Of a stretch of DNA of 58,478 nt, positions 1 through 37,552 are shown piece by piece. The stretch lies in contig MGKV01000008.1 in assembly GCA_001795795.1 (NCBI GenBank), forward strand, positions 1 through 58,478. Direction: 5' to 3'. Each line of letters opens with the position of its first letter. The stretch's first letter is position 1. Source of the stretch: Candidatus Yanofskybacteria bacterium RIFCSPLOWO2_02_FULL_45_18 (GTDB lineage: Bacteria > Patescibacteriota > Minisyncoccia > 2-02-FULL-40-12 > GWA2-44-9). The translations under genes and the position numbers were made by a program. The notes below the pieces were generated by a model. The model was not told the DNA's origin. It was given only the letters and a program-made list of their open reading frames with translations, and did no database searches.

Positions 1-190
1 CCTTGTAGTAGCCGCAATGAAGGCATAAGGTATGGGGTCTGACCGTCTTTTTGCAATGCGAACAGGCCACCAGTTTGAGGGGTTTTAATGCAAGGTGGCT
101 GCGGCGGCGCAGTTGGTGGCCCTTGGCCATGTGATGTCTTGGTACTGCCACGATATAACTTGCTGGTCGCTCCGCCATCTGCTGATGGGC

Positions 191-355
191 GGTACGCTCT
201 TGGCCATCTTCTTCGTTAAAAGCTTTCAGGCGAAGTTTCTTGAGCGTGCTTTAGCCGCTCCAAGAATCGCCTCCGTTTGCTCCTCCGTGTACACTTGGCA
301 CACATCGTCGCAATACTCGCTTTTGTCTCGAATCTGACCAAGCCAGCTGCGTTCT
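191..355. repeat. Dispersed non-coding repeat, copy A (has an extra ~46-bp internal segment relative to copy B)
   Basis: Aligns with 14053..14172: GTACGCTCTYGGCCATCTTCTT...CCGTTTGCTC...GCAATACTCGCTTTTGYCTCGAATCTGRCCAAGCCAGCTGCGTT. Lies upstream of dnaE. Confidence 0.7.
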
Positions 356-418
356 ATTTAGAAACTTTCGTAAACACACAATAACATAAAGCTTGACGGA
401 TTGCAAGAATAAAATGGG

Positions 419-466
419 TTGTCCACATGTTAGTGCCATTGAGGGAAAAAATGGCGGTGGTAAAAT
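419..466 (+). promoter_or_regulatory. Predicted dnaE promoter with upstream DnaA-box-like 9-mer
   Basis: TTGTCCACA (419-427), then 11 nt, -35 TTGAGG (439-444), 16-nt spacer, extended -10 TGgTAAAAT (458-466). Confidence 0.4.
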
Positions 467-477
467 GAATGCATGAT

Positions 478-515
478 ACTCGCGATTACAAAAATAAATT
501 ACCGTAATCGCGAGT
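478..515 (+). promoter_or_regulatory. 12-bp perfect stem-loop in the dnaE 5' leader
   Basis: ACTCGCGATTAC (478-489) pairs with GTAATCGCGAGT (504-515); 14-nt loop; followed by TCTGTTTATT and the dnaE ATG at 529. Confidence 0.4.
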
Positions 516-528
516 TCTGTTTATTCTA

Positions 529-3500
529 ATGTCTAACTTCGTTCATCTTCACACCCACTCCCATTATTCCTTGCTTGACGGCCTGTCAAAAATAGACGGG
601 CTTGTCGCGCGCGCCAAAGAGCTGGGCATGGAAGCGCTGGCCGTTACCGACCACGGCGCAATGTACGGAGCGATTGAGTTTTACGCGGCCTGTAAAAAAG
701 CCGGCATCAAGCCCATCATCGGCGTGGAGGCGTATGTGGCAAACCGGACCCGTTTTGACAAAGAACCCGGCATAGACAACAAACGATACCACCTTACCCT
801 CTTAGCCAAAAATAATATTGGTTATCAAAATCTGGTTAAGCTGGTTACTGCCGCGCATATTGAGGGCTTCTATTATAAACCTCGTGTTGACAAAGAACTT
901 CTTCGCGAACATTCCGAGGGGCTGATCGCTCTTTCAGGGTGTCTGGCGGGCGAATTGGGGAGAAGTATTCAGTCGGGCAATCTTGAAAAAGCCGAGAAGA
1001 TAGCGCGGGAATATCAGGATATTTTAGGGGCTGACAATTATTTTATTGAGATCATGCACCATCCTGAAGTGGAAAATTTCTGGGAATGGCGCAAGTCCCT
1101 GATAACGCTGGCGCATAAACTCAACATTCCGCTGGTAGCCACGCAGGATTCGCATTATCTTAATTCTGATGACAAATTTGCCCACAAAATACTTGTGGCC
1201 ATTTCAACCAACACCGATGTAAGCGACACGGGCATATTTAAGGGTGACGGGAACTATCATTTTACCTCAACCGAAGAAGCGTCGGAGGCGTTCAAAGATA
1301 TTCCGGATGCGGTAGAAAATACGGAAAAGATCGCCCAGCGGTGCAATGTTGAACTGGCATTGGGTAAATTTATTTTCCCCGATTTTGTGCTTGAACCCGG
1401 CAAAACCGCCGACCAGATGCTAAAAGAACTTACCTTGCAAGGCGCTAAGGAGCGCGGGTTGGATGTTAATCCGGAAATTACGGAGCGGTTGTGCTATGAA
1501 TTGGAAATAATCAGGAACAAAAACTACGCCCCCTACTTTCTGGTGGTCGCCGATCTTCTGCGTTTTGCGCGGGAATCCAACATTTATACGACTGTCCGCG
1601 GTTCCGCCGCCGGTTCTCTGGTGGCCCATCTTTCTGGCATAACCAATGTCAATCCGATAGAATTCAAACTTCCTTTTGAACGGTTTCTGAACCCGTTTCG
1701 CCCATCCGCGCCGGATATTGACATGGATTTTGCCGATAACAGGCGCGAAGAAGTGATTGAATATGCCAAAAAGAAATATGGCGCGGACAAAGTAGCCCAA
1801 ATCAGCACTTTCGGCACCATGATGGCCCGCGGGGCGGTTCGCGATGTGGCCCGCGCTCTGGAAAAATCATATGAACTGGGAGATCGGATCGCCAAGCTTA
1901 TTCCGATGGGTTCGCAAGGATTCCCAATGACGATTGACCACGCCATGGAACTTGAGCCGGAGTTAAAGAATTTATATGAGAGAGATTCCGAGGTGCGGCA
2001 GATTCTTGATATTGCCAAAAAACTTGAGGGCACTGTCCGGCATGTGTCGGTTCACGCGGCCGGAGTGGTCATTGCCCCCCAACCGCTGGTTAATTATGTT
2101 CCGATTCAGTTTGATCCTAAAACGGGCGATAAACTGATTACGCAATATGATATGTATACCGTAGGCGAAGATGGCGTTGGGCTGACTAAGTTGGATTTTT
2201 TGGGAATCCGCAATCTGGCGATATTGGAAGATGCGGTGCGGCTGGTGCGCGAACATCGCGGGCTCAATATTGATATTGAAAAAATACCTTTTGACGACAA
2301 GAAAACGTTTATCATGCTGGCCAAAGGCGAAACTGAAGGGTTGTTCCAGTTGAGTGGTTCCGGTATGACCAAGCACCTGATGGAACTCAAGCCCACCACC
2401 GTCCATGACATCAACGCCATGGTCGCGTTGTATCGCCCGGGCCCGATGAACAACATTCCCGAGTATATCGCCCGCAAGCAGGGCCGAAGCAAGATAACCT
2501 ACTTTCATCCCAAGGCCGAAAGTTTTCTTGCCAAATCCTATGGTATTTTGGTTTATCAGGACGACCTGCTGTTTACCGCTCTGGAACTGGCGGGGTATAA
2601 CTGGGAGACGGTGGACAAATTCCGCAAAGCAGTCGGTAAGAAAATTCCGGCGGAAATGGCCAAACAGCACAAAATTTTCGTTGAGGGCTGTCAGACCCAC
2701 AGTGGCATGAGCAAAGACAAAGCGGAAGAAATCTGGAATTTGTTTGAACCGTTTCAGGGTTACGGTTTCAACAAAGCCCATGCCGCCTGTTATGGCCGCG
2801 TAGCCTATCAGACGGCATATATGAAAGCCAATTTTCCGGCCGAATATATGTGCGCCGTGCTTACCGCCGAAGCCGGTGATACCGAAAAGATTGCCGAGAT
2901 TATCACCGAATGCAAGCGGATGAAAATACCGGTGCTGTCTCCGGCCATCAACAGCTCGGCCAAGGATTTTACCGTTGTTAAAACAGCCGGCGCCGAAGAC
3001 CAAATATGTTTCGGGCTGTTGACCATCAAAAATCTGGGAGAAGGGGTGGCTGACGCCATCATTGCCGAACGCGCGGGGCGCGGACCTTACGGGGATATTG
3101 AAAATTTCATCACGCGCATTAATAACAAAGATCTCAACAAAAAGTCTCTTGAAAGTCTTATCAAGTGCGGCGCTCTTGATGAATTTGGCGAACGGAACAC
3201 GCTCTTGTTTAATGTTGAGTCCCTGCTTACTCATGCGCGAGATGAACAAAAGAACGCATCCCAGAAACAAACAAGTCTTTTCGGAGAAAATACTAAAGTT
3301 GTTTTGCCGCCCCTCAAGCTGATGACCACAACCGCGGCCAGCCAGCCGGAGAAACTTATGTGGGAAAAAGAATTGCTGGGATTGTTTGTTTCCGAGCACC
3401 CGTTGAATACCTACCAGACCCAGCTTGCGCTAGAGAGGGTTACAAAAGTCGGCGACCTTAAGGCGACGATATCGGGGGCGGTCAGGATTGGCGGAGTTAT

Positions 3501-3735
3501 CACCAAGACCCAGAAAATTATGACCAAAACCGGCCGACCCATGCTTTTTTCATGGCTGGAAGACCTGTCCTCCAAAATTGAGGTCGTCGTTTTTCCCAAT
3601 GTTTTTGAGCAAAATCCCGATGTCTGGAAAGAAAACAGTATTGTGGTGGTCCAAGGTAAGGTAAACGACCGCGACGGCGTCCTCAAACTCCTCTGCGATA
3701 CGGTTAAACCGTTGGCATTAATGAGCTCGGCGTAG
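529..3735 (+). CDS. dnaE: DNA polymerase III alpha subunit
   Basis: 1068-aa ORF with PHP motif HLHTHSHYSLLDG, pol IIIa core and OB-fold tail. Long antisense ORFs inside it are shadow ORFs. Confidence 0.95.
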   Translation: MSNFVHLHTHSHYSLLDGLSKIDGLVARAKELGMEALAVTDHGAMYGAIEFYAACKKAGIKPIIGVEAYVANRTRFDKEPGIDNKRYHLTLLAKNNIGYQNLVKLVTAAHIEGFYYKPRVDKELLREHSEGLIALSGCLAGELGRSIQSGNLEKAEKIAREYQDILGADNYFIEIMHHPEVENFWEWRKSLITLAHKLNIPLVATQDSHYLNSDDKFAHKILVAISTNTDVSDTGIFKGDGNYHFTSTEEASEAFKDIPDAVENTEKIAQRCNVELALGKFIFPDFVLEPGKTADQMLKELTLQGAKERGLDVNPEITERLCYELEIIRNKNYAPYFLVVADLLRFARESNIYTTVRGSAAGSLVAHLSGITNVNPIEFKLPFERFLNPFRPSAPDIDMDFADNRREEVIEYAKKKYGADKVAQISTFGTMMARGAVRDVARALEKSYELGDRIAKLIPMGSQGFPMTIDHAMELEPELKNLYERDSEVRQILDIAKKLEGTVRHVSVHAAGVVIAPQPLVNYVPIQFDPKTGDKLITQYDMYTVGEDGVGLTKLDFLGIRNLAILEDAVRLVREHRGLNIDIEKIPFDDKKTFIMLAKGETEGLFQLSGSGMTKHLMELKPTTVHDINAMVALYRPGPMNNIPEYIARKQGRSKITYFHPKAESFLAKSYGILVYQDDLLFTALELAGYNWETVDKFRKAVGKKIPAEMAKQHKIFVEGCQTHSGMSKDKAEEIWNLFEPFQGYGFNKAHAACYGRVAYQTAYMKANFPAEYMCAVLTAEAGDTEKIAEIITECKRMKIPVLSPAINSSAKDFTVVKTAGAEDQICFGLLTIKNLGEGVADAIIAERAGRGPYGDIENFITRINNKDLNKKSLESLIKCGALDEFGERNTLLFNVESLLTHARDEQKNASQKQTSLFGENTKVVLPPLKLMTTTAASQPEKLMWEKELLGLFVSEHPLNTYQTQLALERVTKVGDLKATISGAVRIGGVITKTQKIMTKTGRPMLFSWLEDLSSKIEVVVFPNVFEQNPDVWKENSIVVVQGKVNDRDGVLKLLCDTVKPLALMSSA

Positions 3736-3795
3736 TATAGCCGCCCATCAACGGACGGTTTTGATTTATGCCCCCTTCTTTGTTATTCTTTAATC

Positions 3796-5661
3796 ATGGT
3801 TGCGCAACCGCTTGAACATTTGCGTCACTCTTTGGCACACCTCCTAGGCGCGGCGGTTTTGGATTTGTATCCCGGTTCAAAATTGGCCATCGGACCGGCA
3901 ATTGAGGACGGATTTTACTACGATATAGATTTCAGTTCTGCTGAACTGCGCGGACAGACGCGGATTGGTACGCAGACCTACGCGGACCAAAAAATGGTTA
4001 TTTCTGACAGTGATTTGCCGAAGATTGAAAAGAAAATGCGGGAGATTTTAAAGTCATGGGAGGTGTTTGAGAAAATTGATGTCACTCCGGACGAAGCAAG
4101 AAAAATCTACAACGGAAATCAGTATAAGACGGAACTAATTAATGAACTGGAAAAAAACAAACAACCCATAACTCTTTACTACTCCGGCCCCGAAACAAGT
4201 ATCCCCGCCAAGAAGTCCTTGCTACAAGCTACAAGCTATAAGCCACAAGCTGGTTTCTTAGATCTCTGCCGTGGCGGCCATGTTGAAGATGTCAAAGAAA
4301 TAGACCCCGAAGGATTTAAATTGACCCATATCGCCGGAGCGTATTGGCGCGGAAGCGAAAAAAATCCGATGCTTACCCGTATTTACGGACTGGCTTTTTA
4401 TGCCAAAGAAGAGTTGGATGCGCATTTGCGGATGCTGGAGGAAGCCAAAAAGCGCGACCACCGTAAATTGGGCAAAGAGCTGGGGCTTTTTACCATCGCT
4501 GAAGAAGTCGGGCCGGGATTGCCGCTTTTTTATCCCAAAGGAGCGATACTGCGTCGCTTGGTGGAAAATTTTATCACCGAGATACAAGAAAAGCGCGGCT
4601 ATATGCCGATCTGGATTCCTCATGTGACCAAGGGCGAGCTCTACAAGATTTCGGGCCATCTTGAAAAATACGACGCGCTTTACCCGCCGATGCGTCTTCC
4701 CGACGAGGCCGACTACTACATCAAGCCGATGAATTGCCCGCATTTTATGATGTTGTATAAGTCGCTCCCCCATTCTTACCGCGAGTTACCCATTCGTTAT
4801 GTTTGCACCACGACTAATTACCGTTACGAGAAATCGGGAGAGCTCTCCGGATTAACACGGGTGCGTTCGCTGACGCAGGACGACTGCCATGTGTTTGCCA
4901 CATCCGAACAAATAGAAAAAGAGGTCGGATTAATGCTGGACATGATAGAGGAAACTTATAAGGTTTTTGGTTTTAACGATTTTCATGTCCGAGTTTCGAT
5001 TCGGGATATTAAAACGCCTGAAAAATATATCGGCGACTCTGATGTGTGGGAAAAATCCGAGAAGATATTGGAAGGGCTTATAAAAAACAGGAACTGGAAA
5101 TATGATATTGGCGAAGGCGAGGCGGCATTCTACGGTCCGAAGCTTGATTTCATATTCAAAGATGTCATCGGTCGGCCGTGGCAGCTTTCCACGGTTCAGC
5201 TAGATATGAATTTGCCCCAAAGATTCGGGCTTGAATATGTTGATACGGATGGAACTAAAAAACAGCCGGTAGTTATCCATCGGGCGATTCTCGGCTCAAC
5301 GGAACGGTTCCTGGGCATATTGATTGAGCACTACGCCGGAGCGTTTCCGGTATGGCTGGCGCCGGTGCAGGTTGCAGTCCTTTCCGTATCCGACAAACAA
5401 AGCGAGGCGGCCCGGGCGGTGGAACAGCGTCTCAAAAATGCAAGTATTCGCGCGGAGTTAAATAATGAAAACGAAACTTTGGGCAAAAAAATACGCGGAG
5501 CCGAACTTCAAAAGATCCCATATCTTGCGGTAATCGGAGAAAAAGAGGTAGTCAGCGACATGGTAGCAGTTCGCCAGCGGGGTAAAGGAGATTTGGGACA
5601 AATGAGCGTGGAGAGTTTCATTGCGGAGGTAACTCAAGAAGAAAAGGCAAAGTCGCTGTAA
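3796..5661 (+). CDS. thrS: Threonine--tRNA ligase lacking the N-terminal TGS domain
   Basis: Starts directly at the HSLAHLL editing-domain motif. Class II core motifs are present (FYPKG, MNCPHF, TRVRSLTQDD) plus an anticodon-binding tail. Confidence 0.93.
   Translation: MVAQPLEHLRHSLAHLLGAAVLDLYPGSKLAIGPAIEDGFYYDIDFSSAELRGQTRIGTQTYADQKMVISDSDLPKIEKKMREILKSWEVFEKIDVTPDEARKIYNGNQYKTELINELEKNKQPITLYYSGPETSIPAKKSLLQATSYKPQAGFLDLCRGGHVEDVKEIDPEGFKLTHIAGAYWRGSEKNPMLTRIYGLAFYAKEELDAHLRMLEEAKKRDHRKLGKELGLFTIAEEVGPGLPLFYPKGAILRRLVENFITEIQEKRGYMPIWIPHVTKGELYKISGHLEKYDALYPPMRLPDEADYYIKPMNCPHFMMLYKSLPHSYRELPIRYVCTTTNYRYEKSGELSGLTRVRSLTQDDCHVFATSEQIEKEVGLMLDMIEETYKVFGFNDFHVRVSIRDIKTPEKYIGDSDVWEKSEKILEGLIKNRNWKYDIGEGEAAFYGPKLDFIFKDVIGRPWQLSTVQLDMNLPQRFGLEYVDTDGTKKQPVVIHRAILGSTERFLGILIEHYAGAFPVWLAPVQVAVLSVSDKQSEAARAVEQRLKNASIRAELNNENETLGKKIRGAELQKIPYLAVIGEKEVVSDMVAVRQRGKGDLGQMSVESFIAEVTQEEKAKSL
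3949..3988. repeat. Short tandem array of CGCGGA-type units (10-12 nt period) inside thrS
   Basis: CGCGGACAGA CGCGGATTGGTA CGCAGACCTA CGCGGACC. Encodes the odd segment AELRGQTRIGTQTYADQK. Confidence 0.6.
4222..4249. repeat. 7-nt-period tandem array inside thrS
   Basis: CTACAAG CTACAAG CTATAAG CCACAAG. Encodes LLQATSYKPQA just before the conserved DLCRGGH. Confidence 0.75.
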
Positions 5662-5704
5662 ATTTGCGGAGCATACTCGGATTGCGTTCCACAACAAAAG
5701 ACCG

Positions 5705-6349
5705 TCACTTGGTGGCGGTTCTTTTAAATTTTGAAAAAAAATACAACAGAACGATAATTGTGGCCATGGCCGTAATGATTATGATCCGCAGTTCGGTTGA
5801 AATTTGAAAGATATATTGCCAGAACCTAACCATGCCGACCGTTTTGACGATATTGCCAACCAGCAGGACGAAAAATCCTTTTCTCCAACCGCTGATACGG
5901 CAAAATAAGGTGCCGACAATGCGCGAGCCGGGTTCTGGAAAGATTCCAACCAGAAAAATTGCCGGATAACCTCCCCACTTGATAGCTTTGAAGATGCGGA
6001 GATTGGCGTATTGCTCGGGGTTATATTTTTTGGAAAAATAACCGACAATCTCGTCGTAGTAGCCGTTCCTCTTCAGTTTATTCCAAAATTTCTTTAAAAA
6101 ATTTATGTCTTCCCTGATTGATTTCTCTGCGATTTTCTTTTTTGCAATTTTTTTGACAAAACCGTCAATCCAGCCTATTAACCAGTAAACATAAACCAAC
6201 TCACCGGTGGCAAGAATGCAGGCAATTATGGAGGTATGCAAAAATCCGAGACCATGCATCTGCAAATACGGAATAATGCCCAGGTCTATATTCAACAGCC
6301 ACATTAAAGGTAATCCCAAACATGGCCAGAGAGCGAACCATTTTTTCAC
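5705..6349 (-). CDS. Hypothetical multi-pass membrane protein
   Basis: 214-aa ORF with several hydrophobic helices and a basic central loop. No family recognised. Confidence 0.5.
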   Translation of the reverse strand: MKKWFALWPCLGLPLMWLLNIDLGIIPYLQMHGLGFLHTSIIACILATGELVYVYWLIGWIDGFVKKIAKKKIAEKSIREDINFLKKFWNKLKRNGYYDEIVGYFSKKYNPEQYANLRIFKAIKWGGYPAIFLVGIFPEPGSRIVGTLFCRISGWRKGFFVLLVGNIVKTVGMVRFWQYIFQISTELRIIIITAMATIIVLLYFFSKFKRTATK

Positions 6350-6410
6350 AACCGCTCCTTGTTAAGGAACTTTATATTCCCGTCCGAATGTAGTAATACT
6401 AGAGGAAAGT

Positions 6411-7433
6411 ATGGCAGACCGCAAGAAGATAAAAATAATAGTGATATTGGGCCCGACGGCTTCGGGCAAGTCGGGTTTAGCCCTACGACTCGCCAAACTT
6501 ACTCAGGGTAAACCATTCCGAGAGAAATACGGAATAAAAGGGGCTGAAATAATTTCGGCTGACAGTCGGCAGGTTTACCGCGGGATGGATATCGGAACGG
6601 GCAAGGTTGACCAAGACCGAATTCAAAAATCAAAAATCAAAAGTCAAAATTTAGGTCGAGGCCTCTTTTATTCAAGAGGGATTCGGCATTGGCTGATTGA
6701 CGTTGCAAATCCTAAAAAACAATTCACCGCGGCGGATTTTAAGCGGATGGGAGAAAAGGCGATTGAAGAGATTCTTGGCAAAGGCAAGATACCAATTATC
6801 GTCGGCGGGACGGGGTTTTATATTGACGCGCTTTTGAATCGTGTGAATCTTCCTGACGTGCCGCCGGACAGGACATTAAGGGCGAAACTGGAGAAACTAT
6901 CCGCGAAACAGCTTTTTGAGAGGCTTAAGAAACTTGATCCCGTAAGGGCAAAAAATATTGACGCCAAAAACAAAAGACGCCTTGTTAGGGCGATAGAGGT
7001 AGCAAGCGGAAGGTATCGAGTAGCGAGTAGTAAGTATCAAGAAAGTGACTATGATATTTTATGGATTGGGGTTAAATTATCAAAAGAAGAATTGGCGAAA
7101 AGGATAAAAAAACGCCTCAATGAAAGGATAAAACAAGGGATGGTGGCAGAGACGCGAAAACTGCGGGATGGCGGTTTAACCCGGAGACGGCTTTATGATC
7201 TGGGGCTGGAATACCGATGGCTGTCGTTATATCTAAAGCGTGAGACGCAAAGCGCAAAGCGCAAAATCAGAGTCGCCCCCTTCATAAAATCGGAGGAATA
7301 CAAAAATCTTTTGCGCGATATAATCCGCTATTCCAAAAGACAGATGACATGGTTCAAGAGAAATAAAAATGTTGTCTGGGTATCCGGAAAAGAAGCCGCG
7401 CGCGCTCTGGCCAGAAGATGGATGACCGACTAG
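6411..7433 (+). CDS. miaA: tRNA dimethylallyltransferase
   Basis: P-loop GPTASGKS, then ISADSRQVYRGMDIGTGK. Longer than usual because of three repeat-encoded inserts. Confidence 0.9.
   Translation: MADRKKIKIIVILGPTASGKSGLALRLAKLTQGKPFREKYGIKGAEIISADSRQVYRGMDIGTGKVDQDRIQKSKIKSQNLGRGLFYSRGIRHWLIDVANPKKQFTAADFKRMGEKAIEEILGKGKIPIIVGGTGFYIDALLNRVNLPDVPPDRTLRAKLEKLSAKQLFERLKKLDPVRAKNIDAKNKRRLVRAIEVASGRYRVASSKYQESDYDILWIGVKLSKEELAKRIKKRLNERIKQGMVAETRKLRDGGLTRRRLYDLGLEYRWLSLYLKRETQSAKRKIRVAPFIKSEEYKNLLRDIIRYSKRQMTWFKRNKNVVWVSGKEAARALARRWMTD
6623..6650. repeat. 7-nt-period tandem array inside miaA
   Basis: TCAAAAA TCAAAAA TCAAAAG TCAAAAT. Encodes IQKSKIKSQN. Confidence 0.8.
6992..7047. repeat. 7-nt-period tandem array inside miaA (8 units)
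   Basis: GATAGAG GTAGCAA GCGGAAG GTATCGA GTAGCGA GTAGTAA GTATCAA GAAAGTG. Encodes EVASGRYRVASSKYQES. Confidence 0.8.
7234..7275. repeat. 7-nt-period tandem array inside miaA (GCGCAAA family)
   Basis: TAAAGCG TGAGACG CAAAGCG CAAAGCG CAAAATC AGAGTCG. Encodes RETQSAKRKIRV. Confidence 0.8.
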
Positions 7434-7669
7434 TTTTGCAATTTTTTGATATACTCCTCGGTTTCTTTCTCTCCGGTATTTCCAGTGGCATTTCCCGTTT
7501 TCCCCTCCAATTCTATTTGCTTTTCCGCTGATTCCGCAACTTCCCCCTCTTCCGGTTTAAAATAGGTTTCAGGGTTTGGCATAAGCAGAGGCAGGTTATT
7601 TCCAGACGGCTGAATGGTTTCAACATCAGTGGACGTTAATTTGGCCCAAATTTTTTTGAATATGCTCAT
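7430..7669 (-). CDS. Hypothetical small acidic protein
   Basis: 79-aa ORF whose ATG abuts the gatB stop codon (TAAATG), suggesting translational coupling. Confidence 0.45.
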   Translation of the reverse strand: MSIFKKIWAKLTSTDVETIQPSGNNLPLLMPNPETYFKPEEGEVAESAEKQIELEGKTGNATGNTGEKETEEYIKKLQN

Positions 7670-9130
7670 TTAGTCGTTTAATATTTTTTCAATTAGTTCG
7701 GCTACGATTTGGGGATTGGCTTTACCCTTTGTCGCGGCCATGATTCGACCAATAAGGAATTTCAAGGCCCCTTTTTTGCCTTTTTTGTAATCTTCAGCTA
7801 CTTTGCTATTTTCCATAATAACATTTTCCGCGGCTAATTTAAGAGTATCCAGATCGGACACCTGCGCCAGATCTTTTTGACGGATGATATAATCGGGGCT
7901 ATTGCCACTGGCGAACATTTCTTTGAGCAATGTTTGGGCGCCGGAAGAAGAGACTTCTCCTCGGGATACGCGGACAACAAAGTCGGCAAACATTTCGGGC
8001 GTTATCTTGATGTCGTCAATTTCTGCGGAAACATCAGATAGTAATTTTTGCAATTCGGTAATTAAATAATTTGAAGCAAGTTTAAATAATTTTTCCTTAT
8101 GTTCTATGGAGATAAGCTCACTGGCAATCTTTTCAAAATAATTTCCCAGCTTTTTATTGGTGATAAAGAGCGCGATGTCGCTATCCGGCAGTCCGTATTC
8201 TTTTGTAAATCTTTCTCTTCTTTGTTGAGGCAACTCCGGCAGTTTGGATTTGATTTCTTCAATATCTGGTTCGTTGAATTTCAGGGGCGGCAGATCCGGT
8301 TCGGGGAAATATCTGTAATCGCTGGAGCCCTCTTTGGTCCTCTGACTTATGGTTATCAGTTTTTTATCGTCCCACCCACGCGTTTCCTGAACTATCTTCT
8401 CTCCCGCTTCCAGCAATTCAATCTGCCTTTTTGTTTCATAATCCGCGGCTGCGGCGGCCGCTTTGATTGAATTGATGTTTTTGACCTCAACCTTGGTTCC
8501 CAACTTGTCAGTTTTGGAAACTGAAATATTAACCTCAACTCTCATCTGCCCCTTTTCCATATCGGCATCGGAAGCGCCAAGATAACGCAGTATAAGCTGT
8601 AATTCTTCGACAAAGGACTTAATTTCAGAACCGGTCTCAATATCGGGATTAGTAACCAGTTCCATTAAGGGAACGCCCGCGCGATTATAGTCCACCAGAG
8701 AATATTTGCCGTCGGGTGGATGCTGCAGACGACCCGCATCCTCTTCTAGGTGAATTCTCTCGACTCTTATTTTTTTCTTACTTGTCGCCGGTCGCTGGTC
8801 GCTGGTTGCTATTTCCAGCCACCCATTCTCGCACAACGGTTTTTGAAATTGAGAAATTTGGTATCCCTTAGGCAAATCCGGATAGAAATAATTTTTTCTT
8901 TCAAAAAAAGTATCTTGAGAAATTTTGCAGTTCAAAGCTAGACCAATAAGGAGCATTTTGTTTATGGCTTCACGGTTGATTACTGGCAAAGCGCCAGGAT
9001 GACCCATGCAGACGGGGCAAATATTAATGTTGGGATGCTTTTCATCCGGGTCGTTGAGCGAATCGCAAAACATCTTGGTCTTTGTTTTAAGCTCAGCATG
9101 TATTTCCAGTCCAATCGTAGTTTTATACAT
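7670..9130 (-). CDS. gatB: Asp/Glu-tRNA amidotransferase subunit B
   Basis: TIGLEIHAELKTKTKMFC, RIHLEEDAGRL, and a C-terminal YqeY-like tail. Confidence 0.93.
   Translation of the reverse strand: MYKTTIGLEIHAELKTKTKMFCDSLNDPDEKHPNINICPVCMGHPGALPVINREAINKMLLIGLALNCKISQDTFFERKNYFYPDLPKGYQISQFQKPLCENGWLEIATSDQRPATSKKKIRVERIHLEEDAGRLQHPPDGKYSLVDYNRAGVPLMELVTNPDIETGSEIKSFVEELQLILRYLGASDADMEKGQMRVEVNISVSKTDKLGTKVEVKNINSIKAAAAAADYETKRQIELLEAGEKIVQETRGWDDKKLITISQRTKEGSSDYRYFPEPDLPPLKFNEPDIEEIKSKLPELPQQRRERFTKEYGLPDSDIALFITNKKLGNYFEKIASELISIEHKEKLFKLASNYLITELQKLLSDVSAEIDDIKITPEMFADFVVRVSRGEVSSSGAQTLLKEMFASGNSPDYIIRQKDLAQVSDLDTLKLAAENVIMENSKVAEDYKKGKKGALKFLIGRIMAATKGKANPQIVAELIEKILND
8781..8815. repeat. 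7-nt-period tandem array inside gatB (CGACCAG/CGACAAG family)
   Basis: CTTGTCG CCGGTCG CTGGTCG CTGGTTG CTATTTC on the plus strand. Encodes ATSDQRPATS. Confidence 0.8.
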
Positions 9131-10397
9131 TTTCAGTGAATTTTAGGAGATAATTTTTAACTTTTTCCGACTGATCGTATAGGTTTTTGCGGTACTCATT
9201 ATAAACCGCAATTCTTAAGCCAAGATGGGAGCGCCCGTACTCTTTCATGGCGGCGAAATGGTTGGGATAGATGTCGCTGACCCGCCTGATCTTCCTTTCC
9301 TTGTTGTAAACATAGATATCTTCCGGTTCAAATCTGTTTTTGGAAAATGGCGGGATTATCAATAAAAATTTAGCGGGAATTTTGGTCAAATCGGCTATTT
9401 TGTTTTCCAGTTTTTCCAACTCAAACAAATTGTTTACGCGGGGAGAACTGATCAAGCGGTCAAGCGCCCCCGAATCTACTCCGATTGTTTGGATTGTTTT
9501 GTTTACAAAACCGGTATCCGGATTGGCGGATTGATACTTAAACTCTAATGTTAATTTGGGGAAAATTCCAGCCATGAACCTGCTATAATAAAATTTAACC
9601 AGCTTATTCTTGGACAATTCAAATCTTCCAAAAAGACCGGCATCCGTAAGATTAAACAATCCTTTTTCGCTTAGCCCGTCCCCCATTAGTTTATGGGTCA
9701 TTTTTTCAACCAGCCGCTGCAGGATTGCCGCTTTTTTCCGTAGGTAAACATTTTTTGACATTTTTATGTAAAACTCCTGTATCGCTTTGGCCTGATCAAC
9801 CGCCACCTCATTTATGACCAGTTTCCCGTCTATGAAATAGGTGTGTTTGGCCAAAAACTCAACTCCGGGACGCTCGCCCAAAGTGTAAAAAGCGTCCCGC
9901 TCAAGATAATCCAGTTTTTCCGTGCCTAAATTTTTATCAAAAACAGCAAGGTAAAGAGAATTTTTTCTGGAAAAAAGATCGTGGAGGAGATTATAATCGC
10001 ACCCGACGGCAACAAATTTATCTTTTAGGCCTTCTATTATCTTAAGGCCACGCATGTCGTGGTCAATCTTTCCCAGCCGTTCTGTAACATGGGAAAACGG
10101 ACCGTGGCCGATGTCGTGATAAAGGGCGTATACCTGAAGACAAAAGGCCTCGGTTTCTTTTATAAAACCGTGGTGAAGCCAGTCAGCAGTCAATTTTTTA
10201 GTTCGGCCATAAGCGCCTAAAGAATGTTGTTTCCGCGTGTGGGTTGCTGACGGGAAAATGGTTGAGACCAAGCCCAATTGATACTTAAAACCTAAAGACT
10301 GAAACCTTTCTTCGTCTAATAAGAGCAATACTTTTGTTACATCCATCAGTCCCAAAAGAGGGTCAAAAATAAATTTTGGTTTATCAACCGGAGCCAT
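9123..10397 (-). CDS. HD-domain phosphohydrolase (dGTPase/SAMHD1-like dNTP triphosphohydrolase family)
   Basis: HSLGAY, YHDIGHGPFSH and LDYLERDAFY motifs. Overlaps the gatB start by 8 nt. Confidence 0.75.
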   Translation of the reverse strand: MAPVDKPKFIFDPLLGLMDVTKVLLLLDEERFQSLGFKYQLGLVSTIFPSATHTRKQHSLGAYGRTKKLTADWLHHGFIKETEAFCLQVYALYHDIGHGPFSHVTERLGKIDHDMRGLKIIEGLKDKFVAVGCDYNLLHDLFSRKNSLYLAVFDKNLGTEKLDYLERDAFYTLGERPGVEFLAKHTYFIDGKLVINEVAVDQAKAIQEFYIKMSKNVYLRKKAAILQRLVEKMTHKLMGDGLSEKGLFNLTDAGLFGRFELSKNKLVKFYYSRFMAGIFPKLTLEFKYQSANPDTGFVNKTIQTIGVDSGALDRLISSPRVNNLFELEKLENKIADLTKIPAKFLLIIPPFSKNRFEPEDIYVYNKERKIRRVSDIYPNHFAAMKEYGRSHLGLRIAVYNEYRKNLYDQSEKVKNYLLKFTENV

Positions 10398-10420
10398 TTC
10401 TTCATACTACTATAAATAAG

Positions 10421-10449
10421 AGCAAAATAAAGGCCTCCCGAAGGGAGGC
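10421..10449 (-). terminator. Hairpin plus T-rich tract between thyX-like and HD genes
   Basis: GCCTCCC-GAA-GGGAGGC stem-loop followed, on the minus strand, by CTTTATTTTG. Confidence 0.45.
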
Positions 10450-10474
10450 GAGAAAAACTTTGTATTTGCACCGT

Positions 10475-12133
10475 TTAGGATTCTTTGGCCCGCTGGCGGG
10501 CTTCCGACTCCGCCCGAGACCAGTAATAAGTGTTGTGGTCGCAGTTGATAAACTTAGCAAAGCGAGGTAGCCGCTGCATTAGTTCGTTGTGCATAAGCTG
10601 ACAGACCTTGCGATAACTCGGATGCCCCTGCTTGGTAGTTCTAAGCTCTATCAGATGCTGGGCTTCGCGCAAATTCATGCCCATATACCAGCGGATTTTG
10701 AAAGCAAACAGAACGGCATACTGGGCGACTATTGGACCACAGGCCCCTTTGAGCGTTTCAAATAAATTGGCTGATCTTCCGATGCACTCTTCATACTGCT
10801 GGCGCATTCCGATTGCTTCAAATTCTTCCGACATGACCCAGCCCAGATGCGGATTCAACAACTGCCGTTGCTGGGTTAGCTGGCGATGGCGCTGTAAGTC
10901 GCGGTAAATACCGAAATCAGCCACGAAATCAAATGTCAGAGGGTAGCATCCTTCCATGCTTCGGCCCATGCGATTGCGCCTTCCGGTTGGATCGTTATCG
11001 TTTTTGCGGCCATCTAATCCGCAGTATGTTCGGACAACTTTCTCCAGCTCCTCATTGTTGCAGGTTTCTCTCAACAGAGTATAAATGCTTAGGAGAGAAA
11101 GCGGGCAGTAGGGGTAGAGAATATGCGCTATTTGCGAGAGCTCTAAACCGAGATCATTGCCAACAAGAAGATCAACCACGGGGTTGTTGTCAGGCCTTGT
11201 CGGTAGGAATGTTGTCTCTTTCTTGGCAAGCAGGGAAACTAATGGAAGAACCTGCATATCCCGGTCTATGTTTTTGAAGTATGGGTTTTCTTTTCCGCGC
11301 TTCACATACTTCGGGATAACCTTGGAAAGCTCATGTTTTGCGGCAACACCTCTCTCTCGGGCTTCGGTCAGTTCACCGGACAGCAACTTTGTGATAAGGG
11401 CGGTAAAGTATCGTCCATTGCCGAATAATCCAACATTAGTTAGCGTGGCCGCCGGCAACAACAGGCGGTCTATGTCGCAGGCCTTGCTTCTAATATCGGC
11501 AGTATAGGTAGTTTTGAATTTCCTGATATCTTCTTCATCAGTCAGTTGCGCCAGTCGATATTTGGTTTTGTCGTTTGGTTTGAAGGCGTAAGAAGATTTA
11601 TCCGCGCTTTTCAGCGTTTTTAAGAACTCAATCAGTTTTGGCATCGCTGTCGTATAAGTGTCAAAGATAAAATCCATGTCTTTTTCATATTGCGGAAGAA
11701 GACCGGCCCGAACAATTTCCTCGGGTCGTAAATAAGAATATCTTCCCTCCGCGTCTCGCTGGTCGTAAAATACATAACGGGTGGATTGCTCAATAGGACT
11801 GCCTCCGATACGACAATCTTCAACGATTTTTGTAAGCAGATTAGAGATTCTCTCCAAAGCCAGATGAGCGCCTTCCAGTTCGCCCACGCTGTCATCGCCG
11901 AAGGCGTTTAATATCTTTTCCACCAAATCGGCGGCATGGTCAAGATTTAATTTTCCGTCTTTCAGGAACTCTTTTAATAGTGTTTGGCGCAAACTTCCCT
12001 TAGCCCGCGAATAGCGGGCATAGAGCGCGCCTTTAAGGCCGGTCAGTGTGTCCAGTAGCACGAAAGTATCGCCGGCGGGGTCGCTGACATATTTTTCTAA
12101 AACCGAAATTTCTTCGGGCGTAAATTCTGTCAT
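10475..12133 (-). CDS. thyX: Double-length ThyX-type (flavin-dependent) thymidylate synthase-like protein
   Basis: 552 aa. The C-terminal half has LQRHRQLTQQRQ (RHR motif) and NLREAQHLIELRTT. The N-terminal half is a degenerate second ThyX-like repeat (YARYSRAKGS). Confidence 0.7.
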   Translation of the reverse strand: MTEFTPEEISVLEKYVSDPAGDTFVLLDTLTGLKGALYARYSRAKGSLRQTLLKEFLKDGKLNLDHAADLVEKILNAFGDDSVGELEGAHLALERISNLLTKIVEDCRIGGSPIEQSTRYVFYDQRDAEGRYSYLRPEEIVRAGLLPQYEKDMDFIFDTYTTAMPKLIEFLKTLKSADKSSYAFKPNDKTKYRLAQLTDEEDIRKFKTTYTADIRSKACDIDRLLLPAATLTNVGLFGNGRYFTALITKLLSGELTEARERGVAAKHELSKVIPKYVKRGKENPYFKNIDRDMQVLPLVSLLAKKETTFLPTRPDNNPVVDLLVGNDLGLELSQIAHILYPYCPLSLLSIYTLLRETCNNEELEKVVRTYCGLDGRKNDNDPTGRRNRMGRSMEGCYPLTFDFVADFGIYRDLQRHRQLTQQRQLLNPHLGWVMSEEFEAIGMRQQYEECIGRSANLFETLKGACGPIVAQYAVLFAFKIRWYMGMNLREAQHLIELRTTKQGHPSYRKVCQLMHNELMQRLPRFAKFINCDHNTYYWSRAESEARQRAKES

Positions 12134-12840
12134 GGCGTCACCTCTTTGTTGCCTTTATTTTTTGTTGCGATTTCGCCAAATATCAACTGTTTTGACTCCA
12201 AGAAAACTTGTTCTTCTGTCTTAGTGCCGTCTATAATTTTAATGTTATAGACATCGGAATAAGTATTGCAGAAATACTTATAATTTTTATTGATTCGGGC
12301 AAAAGTTTCAGGATTTTCATACTGATCCGGAGTTCTTTTGGACTTGTGCATCCGTTCATAGGATATTTCCGGAGGTATCAGGTAAATCAAAGTCAGATCC
12401 GGCGCGATGAATTGAGTTTTACGTTTGGCAAAAAGGTCAGCTTGCAGGACAATGTATTCATCAACTTCTTTCAGTTCAAATGCCGAATATAGACCCGATA
12501 ACGACCACCGGCTTTGAAGGATTGTTTTGCCGGCTACAAGCCGCGGCAGTATTTCGTCTTTCCAGAATAAGATGCGATTTTCCCAAAAGATTTGCTGATG
12601 CTGATGGGGGCTTAATTTTTCAAAAGCCGTCTTGGTATTCAGAATTGCGCGAATGTGGGGACCCAGCGGGCCGATGTCCGGATCGCGAGTAAATTCAAAA
12701 TTCAATCCGTAAGCGGCATTGTATTTTCCCCAGCGTTCAAGCTGGGTGTCTTTACCGCCGTAGTCAACGCCTTCAAACACGCAGAAAAATCCCGGGTAAG
12801 AATTTTGGCTGAAGAGTTCTTTAACAGTTTTGGAATCCAC
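12130..12840 (-). CDS. Thymidylate kinase-like dNMP kinase (divergent)
   Basis: P-loop FCVFEGVDYGGKDTQ. GTG start preceded by GAGGTG. ATGA overlap with thyX. Confidence 0.55.
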   Translation of the reverse strand: MDSKTVKELFSQNSYPGFFCVFEGVDYGGKDTQLERWGKYNAAYGLNFEFTRDPDIGPLGPHIRAILNTKTAFEKLSPHQHQQIFWENRILFWKDEILPRLVAGKTILQSRWSLSGLYSAFELKEVDEYIVLQADLFAKRKTQFIAPDLTLIYLIPPEISYERMHKSKRTPDQYENPETFARINKNYKYFCNTYSDVYNIKIIDGTKTEEQVFLESKQLIFGEIATKNKGNKEVTP

Positions 12841-12873
12841 TTGTCACCTCGATGTTAAGGTTCTTGCCCACCA

Positions 12874-12910
12874 ATTTTAATGCAATAGTAATTTTAGACA
12901 ATGGGGATAA
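12874..12910 (-). promoter_or_regulatory. Predicted promoter of the tmk-like/thyX/HD/gatB operon with abutting DnaA-box-like 9-mer
   Basis: Minus strand reads TTATCCCCA (12910-12902), -35 TTGTCT (12901-12896), 16-nt spacer, -10 TAAAAT (12879-12874). Confidence 0.4.
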
Positions 12911-12967
12911 CAAAAAGGCGGTCTTCAGACCCTAAAACATTTTGCCGGACAAAATGTTCGGGCGATG

Positions 12968-13393
12968 TTACTTCGTAACGTCTAGTCCCATGCTTCGAGC
13001 CGTTCCTTTGACTATTTGCACAGCTCCCTCAAGGTCATTGGCGTTCAGGTCGCTCATTTTCTTTTCGGCGATTTCGCGGACTTGCGCTTCGGTGACCTTG
13101 CCGACCTTGTTCTTGTTGGGCGTGCCGGAGCCCTTTTCAACGCCGGCGGCTACGCGCAAAAGATATGCCGCGGGAGGGGTTTTAAGCTTAAATTCAAAAG
13201 TCCGGTCTTCGTAAATAGTTATTTCGCATGGGGTAACTTCGCCTTGTTTGTCTTTGGTTGCATCGTTAAACTGGCTTACGAATTGCTGTAAGTTAATGCC
13301 GTGCGGCCCTAAAGCCGTGCCGACCGGCGGAGCCGGCGTAGCCCGACCGCCCTCAACCTGAAGTTTAACTATTGTTTTGATTTTTTTGGCCAC
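12968..13393 (-). CDS. rplK: 50S ribosomal protein L11
   Basis: 141 aa. [31 protein letters not shown] start. Confidence 0.95.
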
Positions 13394-13402
13394 TTTTTAT
13401 GC

Positions 13403-13465
13403 TTTAGGATATTAGGATTTAGGCACTTGGGTTAACGCCTAGAGCCTAGTGCCTGACGGCCTAGA
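13403..13465. repeat. 7-nt-period tandem array filling the nusG-rplK spacer (CCTAGNG/TTAGGA family)
   Basis: TTTAGGA TATTAGG ATTTAGG CACTTGG GTTAACG CCTAGAG CCTAGTG CCTGACG GCCTAGA. Confidence 0.75.
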
Positions 13466-14006
13466 GCTTTTTGATCTGTAAGAAATCCAATTCAACTGGT
13501 GTTTCTCGTCCGAATATTGTTACCAACACCTTAACTCTCCCCTTTTCCACATCAACCTCGGATATCTTGCCGTCAAAATCCTTGAATGGCCCGTCGGTAA
13601 TTTTAACCCGATCATTAACTTGCACATCAATCTTATGTTTGGGCTCCTCAACGCCGGTTCTCTTGAGCAGGGATTCTATTTCAGCATCAGACAAAGGCGT
13701 AGGGACGGTGCCAGCTCCGATAAATCCGGTAACACTGGGCGTATTTCTGACAACATACCACGAATCGTCGTCAACGACCATTTCTACCAAGACATAGCCG
13801 GGGTATATCTTCTCTTCAGTGTTCTCCCTCTTGCCGCTGCGAATTTTGATTTTCTTTTCTTTGGGCACTAAAACATTGAAGATCTTATCTTCAAAACCAA
13901 GCGACTCAACCCGCTGTCTTAAATTTTGGGCGACGGCATCTTCGTAGCCGGAATAAGTATGAATGGCGTACCAGCGACGCTCACCGGTTGTAACTTGTTT
14001 AGGCAT
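13461..14006 (-). CDS. nusG: Transcription termination/antitermination factor NusG
   Basis: 181 aa. WYAIHTYSGYE NGN domain and a C-terminal KOW domain. Confidence 0.95.
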   Translation of the reverse strand: MPKQVTTGERRWYAIHTYSGYEDAVAQNLRQRVESLGFEDKIFNVLVPKEKKIKIRSGKRENTEEKIYPGYVLVEMVVDDDSWYVVRNTPSVTGFIGAGTVPTPLSDAEIESLLKRTGVEEPKHKIDVQVNDRVKITDGPFKDFDGKISEVDVEKGRVKVLVTIFGRETPVELDFLQIKKL

Positions 14007-14052
14007 TTAACTTGCCGGACACTCTGCTATCCCGCCAAAGGCGGGATTAAGC

Positions 14053-14172
14053 AGTACGCTCTCGGCCATCTTCTTTGTTAGAAGCTCCGTTTGCTCATCA
14101 GTGTACTTTTAGTACACTGATGAGCAATACTCGCTTTTGCCTCGAATCTGGCCAAGCCAGCTGCGTTTCTAA
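14053..14172. repeat. Dispersed non-coding repeat, copy B, inserted between secE and nusG
   Basis: Aligns with 191..355. Contains a 13-bp perfect inverted repeat, CTCATCAGTGTAC-TTTTA-GTACACTGATGAG. Confidence 0.7.
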
Positions 14173-14183
14173 ATTATTCAAAA

Positions 14184-14369
14184 TTATCTCAACAGAAACT
14201 TTTGCAAAATGTATCCGAAAACCGCATCCAATGCTCCCAAATAAAAAGCAATAAAAAGACTAATGCCGATGACCACCAGCGTGTATTGGACCGTCTGTTT
14301 GCGGTTTGGCCAGCTTACTTTGGCTAATTCTATTTTGACTTCCTTGAGGAAAGTTATTAACTTTTCCAT
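14184..14369 (-). CDS. secE: Preprotein translocase subunit SecE
   Basis: 61 aa, single C-terminal TM helix, VSWPNRKQT motif, located upstream of nusG. Confidence 0.8.
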   Translation of the reverse strand: MEKLITFLKEVKIELAKVSWPNRKQTVQYTLVVIGISLFIAFYLGALDAVFGYILQKFLLR

Positions 14370-14400
14370 TGATGAGTATTGTACCCCCTTTTAGCGTATC

Positions 14401-14422
14401 TAAAAAGTGCCCGAGGGCACTT
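14401..14422 (-). terminator. Rho-independent terminator after the Lon-like gene
   Basis: AGTGCC-CGAG-GGCACT hairpin followed by TTTTT on the minus strand. Confidence 0.6.
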
Positions 14423-14451
14423 ATGTAATGTAGCAAAAAAATTTTTTAATG

Positions 14452-16326: not shown

Positions 16327-16385
16327 TTGAGACTCCTTATTTTCAAAGGGCTTCGCTTTATTATTAACACGCTGACAGTCAAAAA

Positions 16386-16414
16386 GCAAAACCCCGCCTT
16401 TGAAGCGGGGTTTT
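16386..16414 (-). terminator. Rho-independent terminator after gyrB
   Basis: AAAACCCCGC-TTCAAA-GCGGGGTTTT hairpin followed by a T-rich run on the minus strand. Confidence 0.65.
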
Positions 16415-24666: not shown

Positions 24667-24795
24667 ATGGTGTAGGGCTTATGGCGTATAGCTTTTAGCT
24701 TTGAATGCGAAAAACCTTGCCAACAAGCCGATTAGGATGACACTCTTATTATGCTCCTCGCTTGACAGGGTGTTAAGGGGGGGTGTGGATAACTG
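24611..24795 (-). repeat. Promoter-leader-anchor module, copy 1 (paralogous to 32631..32805)
   Basis: About 185 bp that I estimate by eye at ~85-90% identical to copy 2. Covers the DnaA-box-like 9-mer, -35/-10, a ~80-nt leader with a heptamer array, and the first ~18 codons. Confidence 0.75.
24748..24792 (-). promoter_or_regulatory. Predicted promoter with perfect DnaA-box consensus upstream
   Basis: Minus strand reads TTATCCACA (24792-24784), CCCCCCC, -35 TTAACA (24776-24771), 17-nt spacer, -10 CATAAT (24753-24748). Confidence 0.45.
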
Positions 24796-32686: not shown

Positions 32687-32805
32687 AGCTTATGGCGTAT
32701 AGCTTTTAGCTTTCAAAGCGAAAAACCTTGCCGACAAGCCGATTAGGACGACACTCTTATTATACTCCTCGCTTGACAGGGTGTTAATGGGGGGTGTGGA
32801 TAAGT
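32631..32805 (-). repeat. Promoter-leader-anchor module, copy 2
   Basis: Paralogous to 24611..24795. Confidence 0.75.
32759..32803 (-). promoter_or_regulatory. Predicted promoter with perfect DnaA-box consensus upstream
   Basis: Minus strand reads TTATCCACA (32803-32795), CCCCCCA, -35 TTAACA (32787-32782), 17-nt spacer, -10 TATAAT (32764-32759). Confidence 0.5.
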
Positions 32806-32810
32806 GCAAG

Positions 32811-32852
32811 GCGAAAAATACAAAGCGTAAAGCGCAAAATGCAAAATTAAAG
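32811..32852. repeat. 7-nt-period tandem array, intergenic (GCGCAAA family)
   Basis: GCGAAAA ATACAAA GCGTAAA GCGCAAA ATGCAAA ATTAAAG. Confidence 0.7.
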
Positions 32853-32871: not shown

Positions 32872-32924
32872 CTACTTTTTGATGCCGACCCAGATTGGCA
32901 TTTGCGGAGCGAGTTCAAGTTCTT
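32872..32924. repeat. 53-bp direct repeat, copy 2 (ileS stop codon plus last ~17 codons)
   Basis: Identical to 31470..31522. Confidence 0.95.
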
Positions 32925-36385: not shown

Positions 36386-36420
36386 GCCTAATGCCTAAAG
36401 CCTAGCGCCTAGGGCTTGAC
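36386..36420. repeat. 7-nt-period tandem array directly upstream of the ileS start (GCCTANN family)
   Basis: GCCTAAT GCCTAAA GCCTAGC GCCTAGG GCTTGAC. Confidence 0.8.
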
Positions 36421-37464: not shown

Positions 37465-37489
37465 AATAGATACAGTTTAAATTAAATTA

Positions 37490-37552
37490 GCGACTGACAA
37501 CTGACAACCAACAACCATGTTGTGCGTTGTGAGTCGTTAGTTGTAAGTTTCC
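37490..37552. repeat. 7-nt-period array forming an imperfect palindrome between mpg and htrA
   Basis: GCGACTG ACAACTG ACAACCA ACAACCA | TGTTGTG CGTTGTG AGTCGTT AGTTGTA AGTTTCC. Confidence 0.75.

Follow-up and report, generated by a model that had tools for sequence, protein, structure and literature searches.

Knowledge of heptanucleotide repeats in bacteria goes back to the cyanobacterial STRRs, with the consensus units CCCCAGT (STRR1), TTGGTCA (STRR2) and CAACAGT (STRR3); we know of no explanation in the field for their origin or for the 7-nt period. Another type of repeat, the Rickettsia palindromic element (RPE), is conserved, palindromic and mobile, about 100-150 bp long and present in many copies. 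Here we describe short tandem arrays of 7-nt units in a contig of the ultra-small Candidatus Yanofskybacteria bacterium RIFCSPLOWO2_02_FULL_45_18 (MGKV01000008.1, positions 1 to 58,478, referred to below as the window), three of them in frame within miaA, the gene for tRNA dimethylallyltransferase. The period-7 arrays of the window are real and their excess is statistically overwhelming.

According to summaries of the survey of Mrazek 2007, heptanucleotides are the most abundant class of long simple sequence repeats (LSSRs) in many bacteria, a 7-nt polymerase contact has been proposed to favour slippage, and repeats within genes are mainly multiples of three (summarised in PMC4679880). The GGGNATC heptamers of Xanthomonas and Nostoc show a preference for four units, attributed to G-quadruplex formation (PMC4692102), and in marine Beggiatoaceae and certain cyanobacteria the direct repeat TAACTGA is present in two to six copies, frequently immediately ahead of a gene (PMC4679880). 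The tandem repeats within open reading frames (ORFs) of Borgs are all divisible by three and evolve fast (PMC9879509). A literature search that missed most subscription journals found no report of heptamer repeats in Patescibacteria or the Candidate Phyla Radiation (CPR), and the window has no tandem copies of STRR1-3, GGGNATC or TAACTGA.

Periodicity was scored with a run test (+1/-2 lag score of at least 10, lags 3 to 15 compared, shuffles as control) and with a sliding test (at least 16 lag-7 matches among 21 positions). The enrichment over shuffled sequence on which an earlier note on this DNA had staked its reading was evident in the run test, with 12 lag-7 arrays in the 58-kb window against 0.1 in shuffles, a more than 100-fold excess; among the other lags, comparable enrichment was seen only at lag 14. 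The sliding test returned 16 segments at lag 7, 7 at lag 14 and 0-1 at each other lag. The window arrays have the defining properties of heptanucleotide LSSRs, i.e. a tandem unit within 5-11 nt and a length greater than expected by chance, and lineage-specific over-representation was found in the sampled loci (fragments from four relatives and 80 Patescibacteria loci).

The miaA ORF stays open through all three arrays, as the earlier note had stated, and its product can be aligned over the whole length to the solved MiaA of Bacillus halodurans, Staphylococcus epidermidis and Escherichia coli (E 6e-41 to 6e-27). The nearest database homologues belong to Candidatus Yanofskybacteria and other Patescibacteria and reach at most 61% identity, with none between 61% and 100% in the protein collection searched. 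Each array consists of about four units:

6411-7433, plus strand: miaA, tRNA dimethylallyltransferase, 340 aa, intact ORF, host of three arrays (ORF list, PDB matches, PF01715 homologues)
6623-6649, plus strand: miaA array 1, TCAAAAA x3.9, encodes QKSKIKSQN (aa 71-80; Tandem Repeats Finder (TRF), 95% matches)
7013-7041, plus strand: miaA array 2, degenerate GTAKCRA x4, encodes YRVASSKYQ (aa 201-211; sliding lag-7 test)
7238-7266, plus strand: miaA array 3, CGCAAAG, about four units with degenerate flanks, encodes ETQSAKRKI (aa 276-286; sliding lag-7 test)

All three arrays had been recognised previously, the first of them almost exactly (TCAAAAA x4 at 6623-6650), but the unit counts and spans of the other two had been overstated. 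Array 2, given as eight units at 6992-7047, has four (GTATCGA GTAGCGA GTAGTAA GTATCAA) and is too degenerate to be detected by TRF at score 30; over the longer span, 24 of 49 lag-7 positions match. Array 3, given as six units at 7234-7275, has about four degenerate ones around a perfect core of CGCAAAG x2.9 (7246-7265, TRF). Because 7 and 3 have no common factor, each unit is translated in every one of the three frames, and the encoded peptide has a period of 7 residues; one array-spanning MiaA peptide is, for example, IQKSKIKSQNLGR.

The arrays had been thought to encode inserts where MiaA homologues have short loops, which is correct for two of the three sites. In the alignment to the solved enzymes, array 1 sits within a 17-aa gap and array 3 within a gap of about 12 aa, and both are insertions. 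Array 2, in contrast, brings no net gain, as the 19-aa loop of the window has the baseline length among 121 close homologues and its residues pair with homologous residues of the distant solved MiaA, the outcome named in the earlier note as arguing against insertion. The short baseline form was found at each site in 28-32 of the 121 homologues. In an AlphaFold2 model of MiaA (27 homologues, mean predicted confidence score (pLDDT) 78.9), the array sites coincide with the three coil stretches of lowest confidence: residues 54-85 with pLDDT <50 at site 1, residues 201-210 (coil, mean pLDDT 58) at site 2, and about residues 281-290 at site 3, where coil with lowered pLDDT covers residues 279-287.

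The earlier conclusion that this is not ordinary protein low complexity holds, given a DNA-level period-7 pattern that is found in genes and spacers, genome-wide and lineage-wide. The arrays are not, however, a dispersed repeat of one sequence family, as had also been suggested. Some units do recur across the window, namely CGCAAAG (7246, 35739 as reverse complement, 32822) and AGCGAC (8784, 33185, 33763), but overall the units are very diverse and sharing within the genome is weak; unit similarity was weakly higher within than between genomes (permutation p ~0.025), a difference that unit GC content could explain. What the arrays share is the period of 7 and a size of about four units, not a sequence.

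The relatives used for comparison, L093-L096, were located by exact-protein look-ups and have MiaA 51-59% identical to that of the window; a scan of genome contigs gave, among the matches listed, no relatives above 50% MiaA identity. The gene order dnaE-thrS-hypothetical gene-miaA-small ORF-gatB-thyX(-tmk)-rplK-nusG-secE-gyrB is common to the window and the four relatives, with the L096 contig ending at thyX. All four showed an excess at lag 7 only, amounting to 7, 7, 5 and 3 arrays per 15-21 kb. The excess was weaker in the 80 other Patescibacteria loci (1.22 Mb), where 47 arrays were counted at lag 7, 4-8 at each of lags 4, 5, 8, 10 and 11, and 22-26 at lags 6, 9 and 12, and it was concentrated in some lineages (Wolfebacteria L034, Parcubacteria L018).

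The same sites were found to carry arrays in different species, usually with different units. At miaA site 1, the arrays of relatives have TCAAAAG, AAATCCT plus CAAAATT, and AAAAGTT; related units (TCAAAAG/AAAAATC) are present in L093, L018 and L082, and other units in L094-L096. Since TCAAAAR-type units recur at this site in the window and in L093, L018 and L082, older remnants may have reseeded the arrays. Site 2 has arrays in L093 (ACCTAWA), L095 (CAAATTC) and also L013, and site 3 in L095 (CAATCCG) and L096 (CAATTTT). The GatB-site unit is a different one in L094, L095, L096 and L084, and the peptides encoded there across species are ATSDQRPATS, PNPKSQIP, ETRDKRQETG and ITNYQLPITQ. Array sites in dnaE and gyrB are likewise shared between relatives, mostly with different units: in gyrB of L095, AAAGCGC x3.3 lies about as far from the C-terminus as does the gyrB array of the window, and L094 and L095 exceed the window by 7 aa at one DnaE site where they bear arrays. 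Because several of the relatives' arrays are perfect over 27-31 nt while their host proteins are 50-60% identical, the arrays would be much younger than the species splits. When loop lengths were measured from anchor to anchor in the 121 MiaA homologues, a 7-aa periodicity, and only a modest one, emerged at site 1, with none at the other two sites; neither this nor the pairwise indel lengths given below was used as evidence for quantised indels.

Within the species the arrays are invariant. Twelve independent assemblies of the same species from several Rifle samples, including GCA_001795665.1, were compared with positions 1-17433 of the window at 99.67-99.96% identity. At the consensus level there were no indels in the 17.4 kb, hence neither the copy-number polymorphism that had been considered earlier nor any change in unit number that would switch the reading frame. 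Of the 119 sites that vary among the 12 assemblies, none lies in an array, against 1.3 expected, a number too small to inform. Phase-variable contingency loci are surface, virulence or restriction-modification genes with repeats usually near the 5' end, whereas the arrays described here lie at internal loops of the housekeeping genes miaA, gatB, thrS, ileS, gyrB and dnaE. Given the absence of consensus-level indels in 12 same-species assemblies, the arrays are not phase-variable loci. Being stable within the species, they slowly reshape protein loops and build hairpins in spacers, and do not serve as phase-variation switches.

The same-species assemblies do differ just left of the window, where the rnc-rpsP spacer and the first rpsP codons are entirely different between strains (L002 2001-2171, 171 nt; L005 103-189, 87 nt). 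The longer allele holds a four-unit TTNNCAA array and an inverted copy of it; two scaffolds (L001, L003) have 100-N gaps at this locus and three contigs end within about 0.7 kb.

In the window, the genes thrS, gatB, gyrB and ileS also contain arrays:

4221-4250, plus strand: thrS array, GCTACAA x4.4 (TRF, run test)
8784-8810, minus strand: gatB array, CAGCGAC x3.9 (sense strand), encodes ATSDQRPATS after the GWLEI motif (TRF, run test)
16733-16752, minus strand: gyrB array, AAAGCTC x2.9 (sense strand; TRF, run test)
33185-33210, minus strand: ileS array, AAGCGAC x3.7 (sense strand), encodes ATSDKRQAT (TRF, run test)
33763-33791, minus strand: ileS array, AAGCGAC x4.1, perfect, encodes GDKRQATSDK (TRF, run test)
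35549-35574, minus strand: ileS array, AATACAT x3.9 (sense strand), encodes NTEYIIHNT (TRF, run test)
35739-35769, minus strand: ileS array, AAAGTTC/AAAGCGC x4.4 (sense strand), encodes KFKVQSAKRK (TRF, run test)

The ThrRS array lies inside a 21-aa (63-nt) insertion of the window that is absent from three relatives. This insertion (4189-4251) is composite, with a younger GCTACAA x4 array following an older stretch of degenerate 14-nt period (CCCCGAAACAAGTA / TCCCCGCCAAGAAG), an arrangement that suggests successive events at one site. The GatB loop is 5 aa longer than in T. maritima GatB; among Patescibacteria, members without an array there have a loop of 7 aa, and those with an array or its remnants one of 13-18 aa. 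In comparison with solved IleRS structures, lengths at the four IleRS arrays differ by +6, 0, +8 and +1 aa, with +6 aa at the 35739-35769 site and a gapless alignment at 35549-35574.

Three genes of the region have additional features. The IleRS ORF (32872-36378, minus strand, 1168 aa) contains a histidine-phosphatase domain (PF00300, aa 494-654, E 2e-27) inserted between regions that are contiguous, at residues 478 and 486, in solved IleRS structures. The ThyX ORF (10475-12133, minus strand) encodes 552 aa, the Thy1 match being limited to about aa 399-523; its large N-terminal region has no Pfam match, and the orthologues of relatives range from 303 to 582 aa. Two relatives have a gyrB intein (PF14890; L093 18905-21047, L094 17653-21129) in proteins of 1127-1158 aa, and the window gyrB of 692 aa is without it.

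To separate effects of translation from those of the underlying process, coding arrays (inside long ORFs, n=46) were compared with non-coding arrays (n=34) across 1.35 Mb. Non-coding sequence contained 0.30 arrays per kb and coding sequence 0.038, i.e. arrays are about 8 times denser outside genes. On the sense strand A exceeded T in 42 of the 46 coding arrays, whereas the non-coding arrays had no strand skew or orientation bias, and 23 of 34 spacer arrays contained stop trinucleotides on both strands. Since only the coding arrays are A-rich, the A bias reflects a coding filter; judged from these sequences, the A-rich units and the K/S/Q/N-rich peptides are a product of selection on translatable sequence and not a property of the generator. 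The length mode was 26-32 nt in both classes, with a secondary peak at 20 nt in coding arrays.

The arrays are probably explained by generation of heptanucleotide simple sequence repeats through slipped or reiterative copying, followed by a coding filter and by turnover at permissive loops. A short local 7-nt unit would be amplified to about four tandem copies, most likely when replication or repair slips or copies reiteratively in a 7-nt register; it is this generating step that we infer. The process acts across the whole genome and in related Paceibacteria, the miaA arrays being local examples. In genes, selection would keep only frame-preserving arrays, a net gain of three units being 21 nt or 7 codons, and the survivors would be stop-free, with an A-rich sense strand and peptides rich in K, S, Q, N and T, in loops that tolerate extra residues. 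Arrays would then decay by point mutation and be regenerated or homogenised at the same permissive loops, which could account for near-perfect arrays of different units at orthologous sites.

Several observations weigh against slippage of this kind. If slippage were stepwise and open-ended, unit numbers should fall off monotonically, and the observed sizes differ from that: 24 of the 34 non-coding arrays are 24-32 nt long and 4 are 17-21 nt, giving a mode of about four units as in coding arrays, and perfect lag-7 runs of 14-16 nt (two full units) show no excess over other lags. In essential genes a stepwise path would have no viable intermediates, because a gain of one or two units shifts the frame. 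Relative to homologues without an array, net changes in loop length frequently depart from multiples of 7 aa (0, +1, +5, +6, +8, +9), and indel lengths in pairwise alignments of 11 syntenic genes have no 7-aa peak, only weak peaks at 14 and 21 aa. Finally, ongoing slippage was not observed directly, there being no copy-number change in the 12 assemblies.

The preference for about four units is the main open point, and for this reason we considered a quantised, intrinsically frame-preserving generator, in which a fixed patch of about 28 nt arises in a single replication or repair event through reiterative copying of a 7-nt template, either as one seed plus three copies or as a fixed-length overwrite, so that survival in frame would be largely automatic and not selected. 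The 26-32 nt mode common to coding and non-coding arrays, the lack of a two-unit excess among perfect lag-7 runs and the replacement of a loop without change in length at miaA site 2 and at ileS 35549 speak for such a generator, as does the same four-unit preference in the unrelated GGGNATC heptamers of Xanthomonas and Nostoc (PMC4692102). We nevertheless regard it as unlikely: the sample is small (34 non-coding arrays), coding arrays have the secondary 20-nt peak, there are arrays of 35-75 nt, neither an enzyme nor a signature is known for it, and the length mode could instead result from a balance of expansion, contraction and decay or from a detection threshold. Only tentatively, then, might Paceibacteria, and perhaps heptamer-rich bacteria generally, write about four copies in one step (about 28 nt; net +21 nt or a fixed-length overwrite). 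If this were true, the frame would be kept by construction, surface loops of essential proteins would be continually rewritten and spacer hairpins would be built by the same process; it would also explain the four-unit preference in Xanthomonas and Nostoc formerly attributed to G-quadruplexes. The G-quadruplex explanation does not apply to the window arrays because their units are A/T-rich, and here the four-unit preference appears without G-quadruplex potential.

It is improbable that the arrays are kept for protein function, as flexible K/S/Q/R-rich loops adding RNA or DNA contacts to MiaA, GatB, ThrRS, IleRS, GyrB and DnaE. Every host seen is a nucleic-acid enzyme, but most genes of the window are housekeeping genes anyway. 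The same loops bear arrays across species and a KSK(V/I)K(S/N)Q motif occurs at miaA site 1 in many homologues, yet peptides at one and the same site can be wholly different between species (ATSDQRP, PNPKSQI, ETRDKRQ, ITNYQLP) and about a quarter of close MiaA homologues have no inserts. Moreover, selection on the peptide cannot hold third-codon positions identical, although arrays are perfect at the DNA level, and arrays are much denser in spacers.

The spacer arrays bear on a further alternative, in which the repeats are nucleic-acid cis-elements, either multimeric sites bound by a protein that covers about 7 nt (for instance a cold-shock or OB-fold protein) or RNA-structure modules, placed where the protein tolerates them. 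The spacer arrays of the window are as follows:

13437-13467: GCCTAGA x4.3 in the nusG-rplK spacer, adjoined by an inverted TTTAGGA array at 13403-13423 (TRF)
32822-32847: AAAGCGY array, intergenic, downstream of ileS (run and sliding tests)
36386-36412: GCCTARN array directly upstream of the ileS start (TRF, run and sliding tests)
37493-37549: two inverted heptamer arrays, ACTGACA/ACCAACA and TTGTGMG, between mpg and htrA-like genes (run and sliding tests)
53479: further spacer array

Predicted RNA folding was significant only for inverted pairs, and single spacer arrays gave no significant fold signal. The inverted arrays at 37493-37549 are predicted to fold into a hairpin whose stem has about 30 bp (dG -27.3 kcal/mol, z -5.3), and in two relatives inverted arrays form a hairpin in the nusB-rnc spacer from differing units (z -4.2 and -2.5). 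These strong hairpins (z -5.3 and z -4.2), including that of the nusB-rnc spacer, speak for the cis-element explanation, and CspB is described as binding heptamer repeats with one protein per unit (summarised in PMC4679880). Against it stand the high diversity of the units, which have no common motif, the absence of palindromes in in-gene arrays and of a fold signal in several spacer arrays, and the unbiased orientation in spacers, and we consider it highly improbable.

Long hairpins from inverted-pair spacer arrays were seen at 37484-37550 and 13390-13480 of the window, at 1855-1975 of L093 and at 3900-4030 of L094. The E. coli rnc leader is a precedent for RNase III autoregulation, and by analogy the nusB-rnc hairpin could be an autoregulatory substrate of RNase III. 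A separate 14-nt motif, TATGGCG[CT]ATAGCT, occurs three times, once in tandem (24680-24693, 32677-32704). It coincides with or immediately precedes the starts of two ORFs on the minus strand, a LamG-like one and one without assigned function, and may be a shared regulatory element.

That the arrays are phase-variable contingency loci (a unit length that is not a multiple of 3), in-frame mobile elements (a position in frame within ORFs, as for RPEs) or products of chance or assembly is very improbable and largely refuted, since the 17.4 kb shared by 12 assemblies has no indels and its arrays no single-nucleotide polymorphisms, they reside in essential housekeeping genes, they measure 20-31 nt and have neither shared sequence nor inverted-repeat structure, independent assemblies contain identical arrays, the ORFs are intact and the excess over shuffles is more than 100-fold. 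Programmed-frameshift slippery sites were rejected by inspection, as the units are unlike X XXY YYZ and the ORFs read straight through.

Arrays in conserved essential genes make orthologous sites comparable across species, and this comparison shows the birth, unit turnover and decay of heptanucleotide repeats, while spacer arrays allow the coding filter (frame, stops, hydrophilicity) to be told apart from the underlying process. A considerable fraction of the low-complexity inserts that are specific to lineages of CPR, and that complicate the alignment and annotation of their proteins, may stem from this process.

Among the known systems closest to the arrays are the LSSRs of Mrazek 2007, which, as far as summarised in PMC4679880 and PMC4692102, share 7-nt tandem units, a length beyond chance, period 7 as the favoured one, lineage-specific excess, higher density between genes and polymerase slippage as the proposed origin. 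Compared with the LSSRs so summarised, the window heptamers differ in lying in frame in essential genes, in their conserved loop sites, in unit turnover and in their CPR host. Of the two analogies drawn in the earlier note, that to STRRs is apt in kind, but the arrays are neither STRRs nor palindromic elements. They have the tandem heptanucleotide unit of STRRs, not the defined consensus units, and the host is not a heterocystous cyanobacterium, the closest MiaA homologues being from Candidatus Yanofskybacteria and Patescibacteria. Unlike STRR and GGGNATC repeats (PMC4692102), the window units are diverse, A/T-rich and without G-quadruplex potential, and many are translated; unlike TAACTGA repeats (PMC4679880), which have a single unit with stop codons in the forward orientation and are essentially intergenic, they are diverse and also occur in genes. 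STRR, GGGNATC and TAACTGA repeats are all essentially intergenic with defined units, and the window arrays are not members of these named families.

As with RPEs, in-frame repeats within conserved ORFs add a surface peptide while function is kept, and such insertion was found at MiaA sites 1 and 3 and at the GatB, ThrRS and IleRS sites. In place of a conserved palindrome of about 100-150 bp, however, the in-gene arrays are direct repeats of local 7-nt units, 20-31 nt long, without a common sequence or palindrome. Like the repeats of Borgs (PMC9879509), they are genome-specific tandem repeats in ORFs that encode hydrophilic, probably disordered segments, with an A bias that differs between genic and intergenic copies. 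They differ from Borg repeats in a unit of 7 nt that is not divisible by three, a 7-aa peptide period arising only via 21-nt super-units, and in their invariance within the species. The arrays thus work like heptanucleotide LSSRs and STRRs and are distinguished from them by the in-frame setting in essential genes, the unit turnover at orthologous loops and the CPR host.

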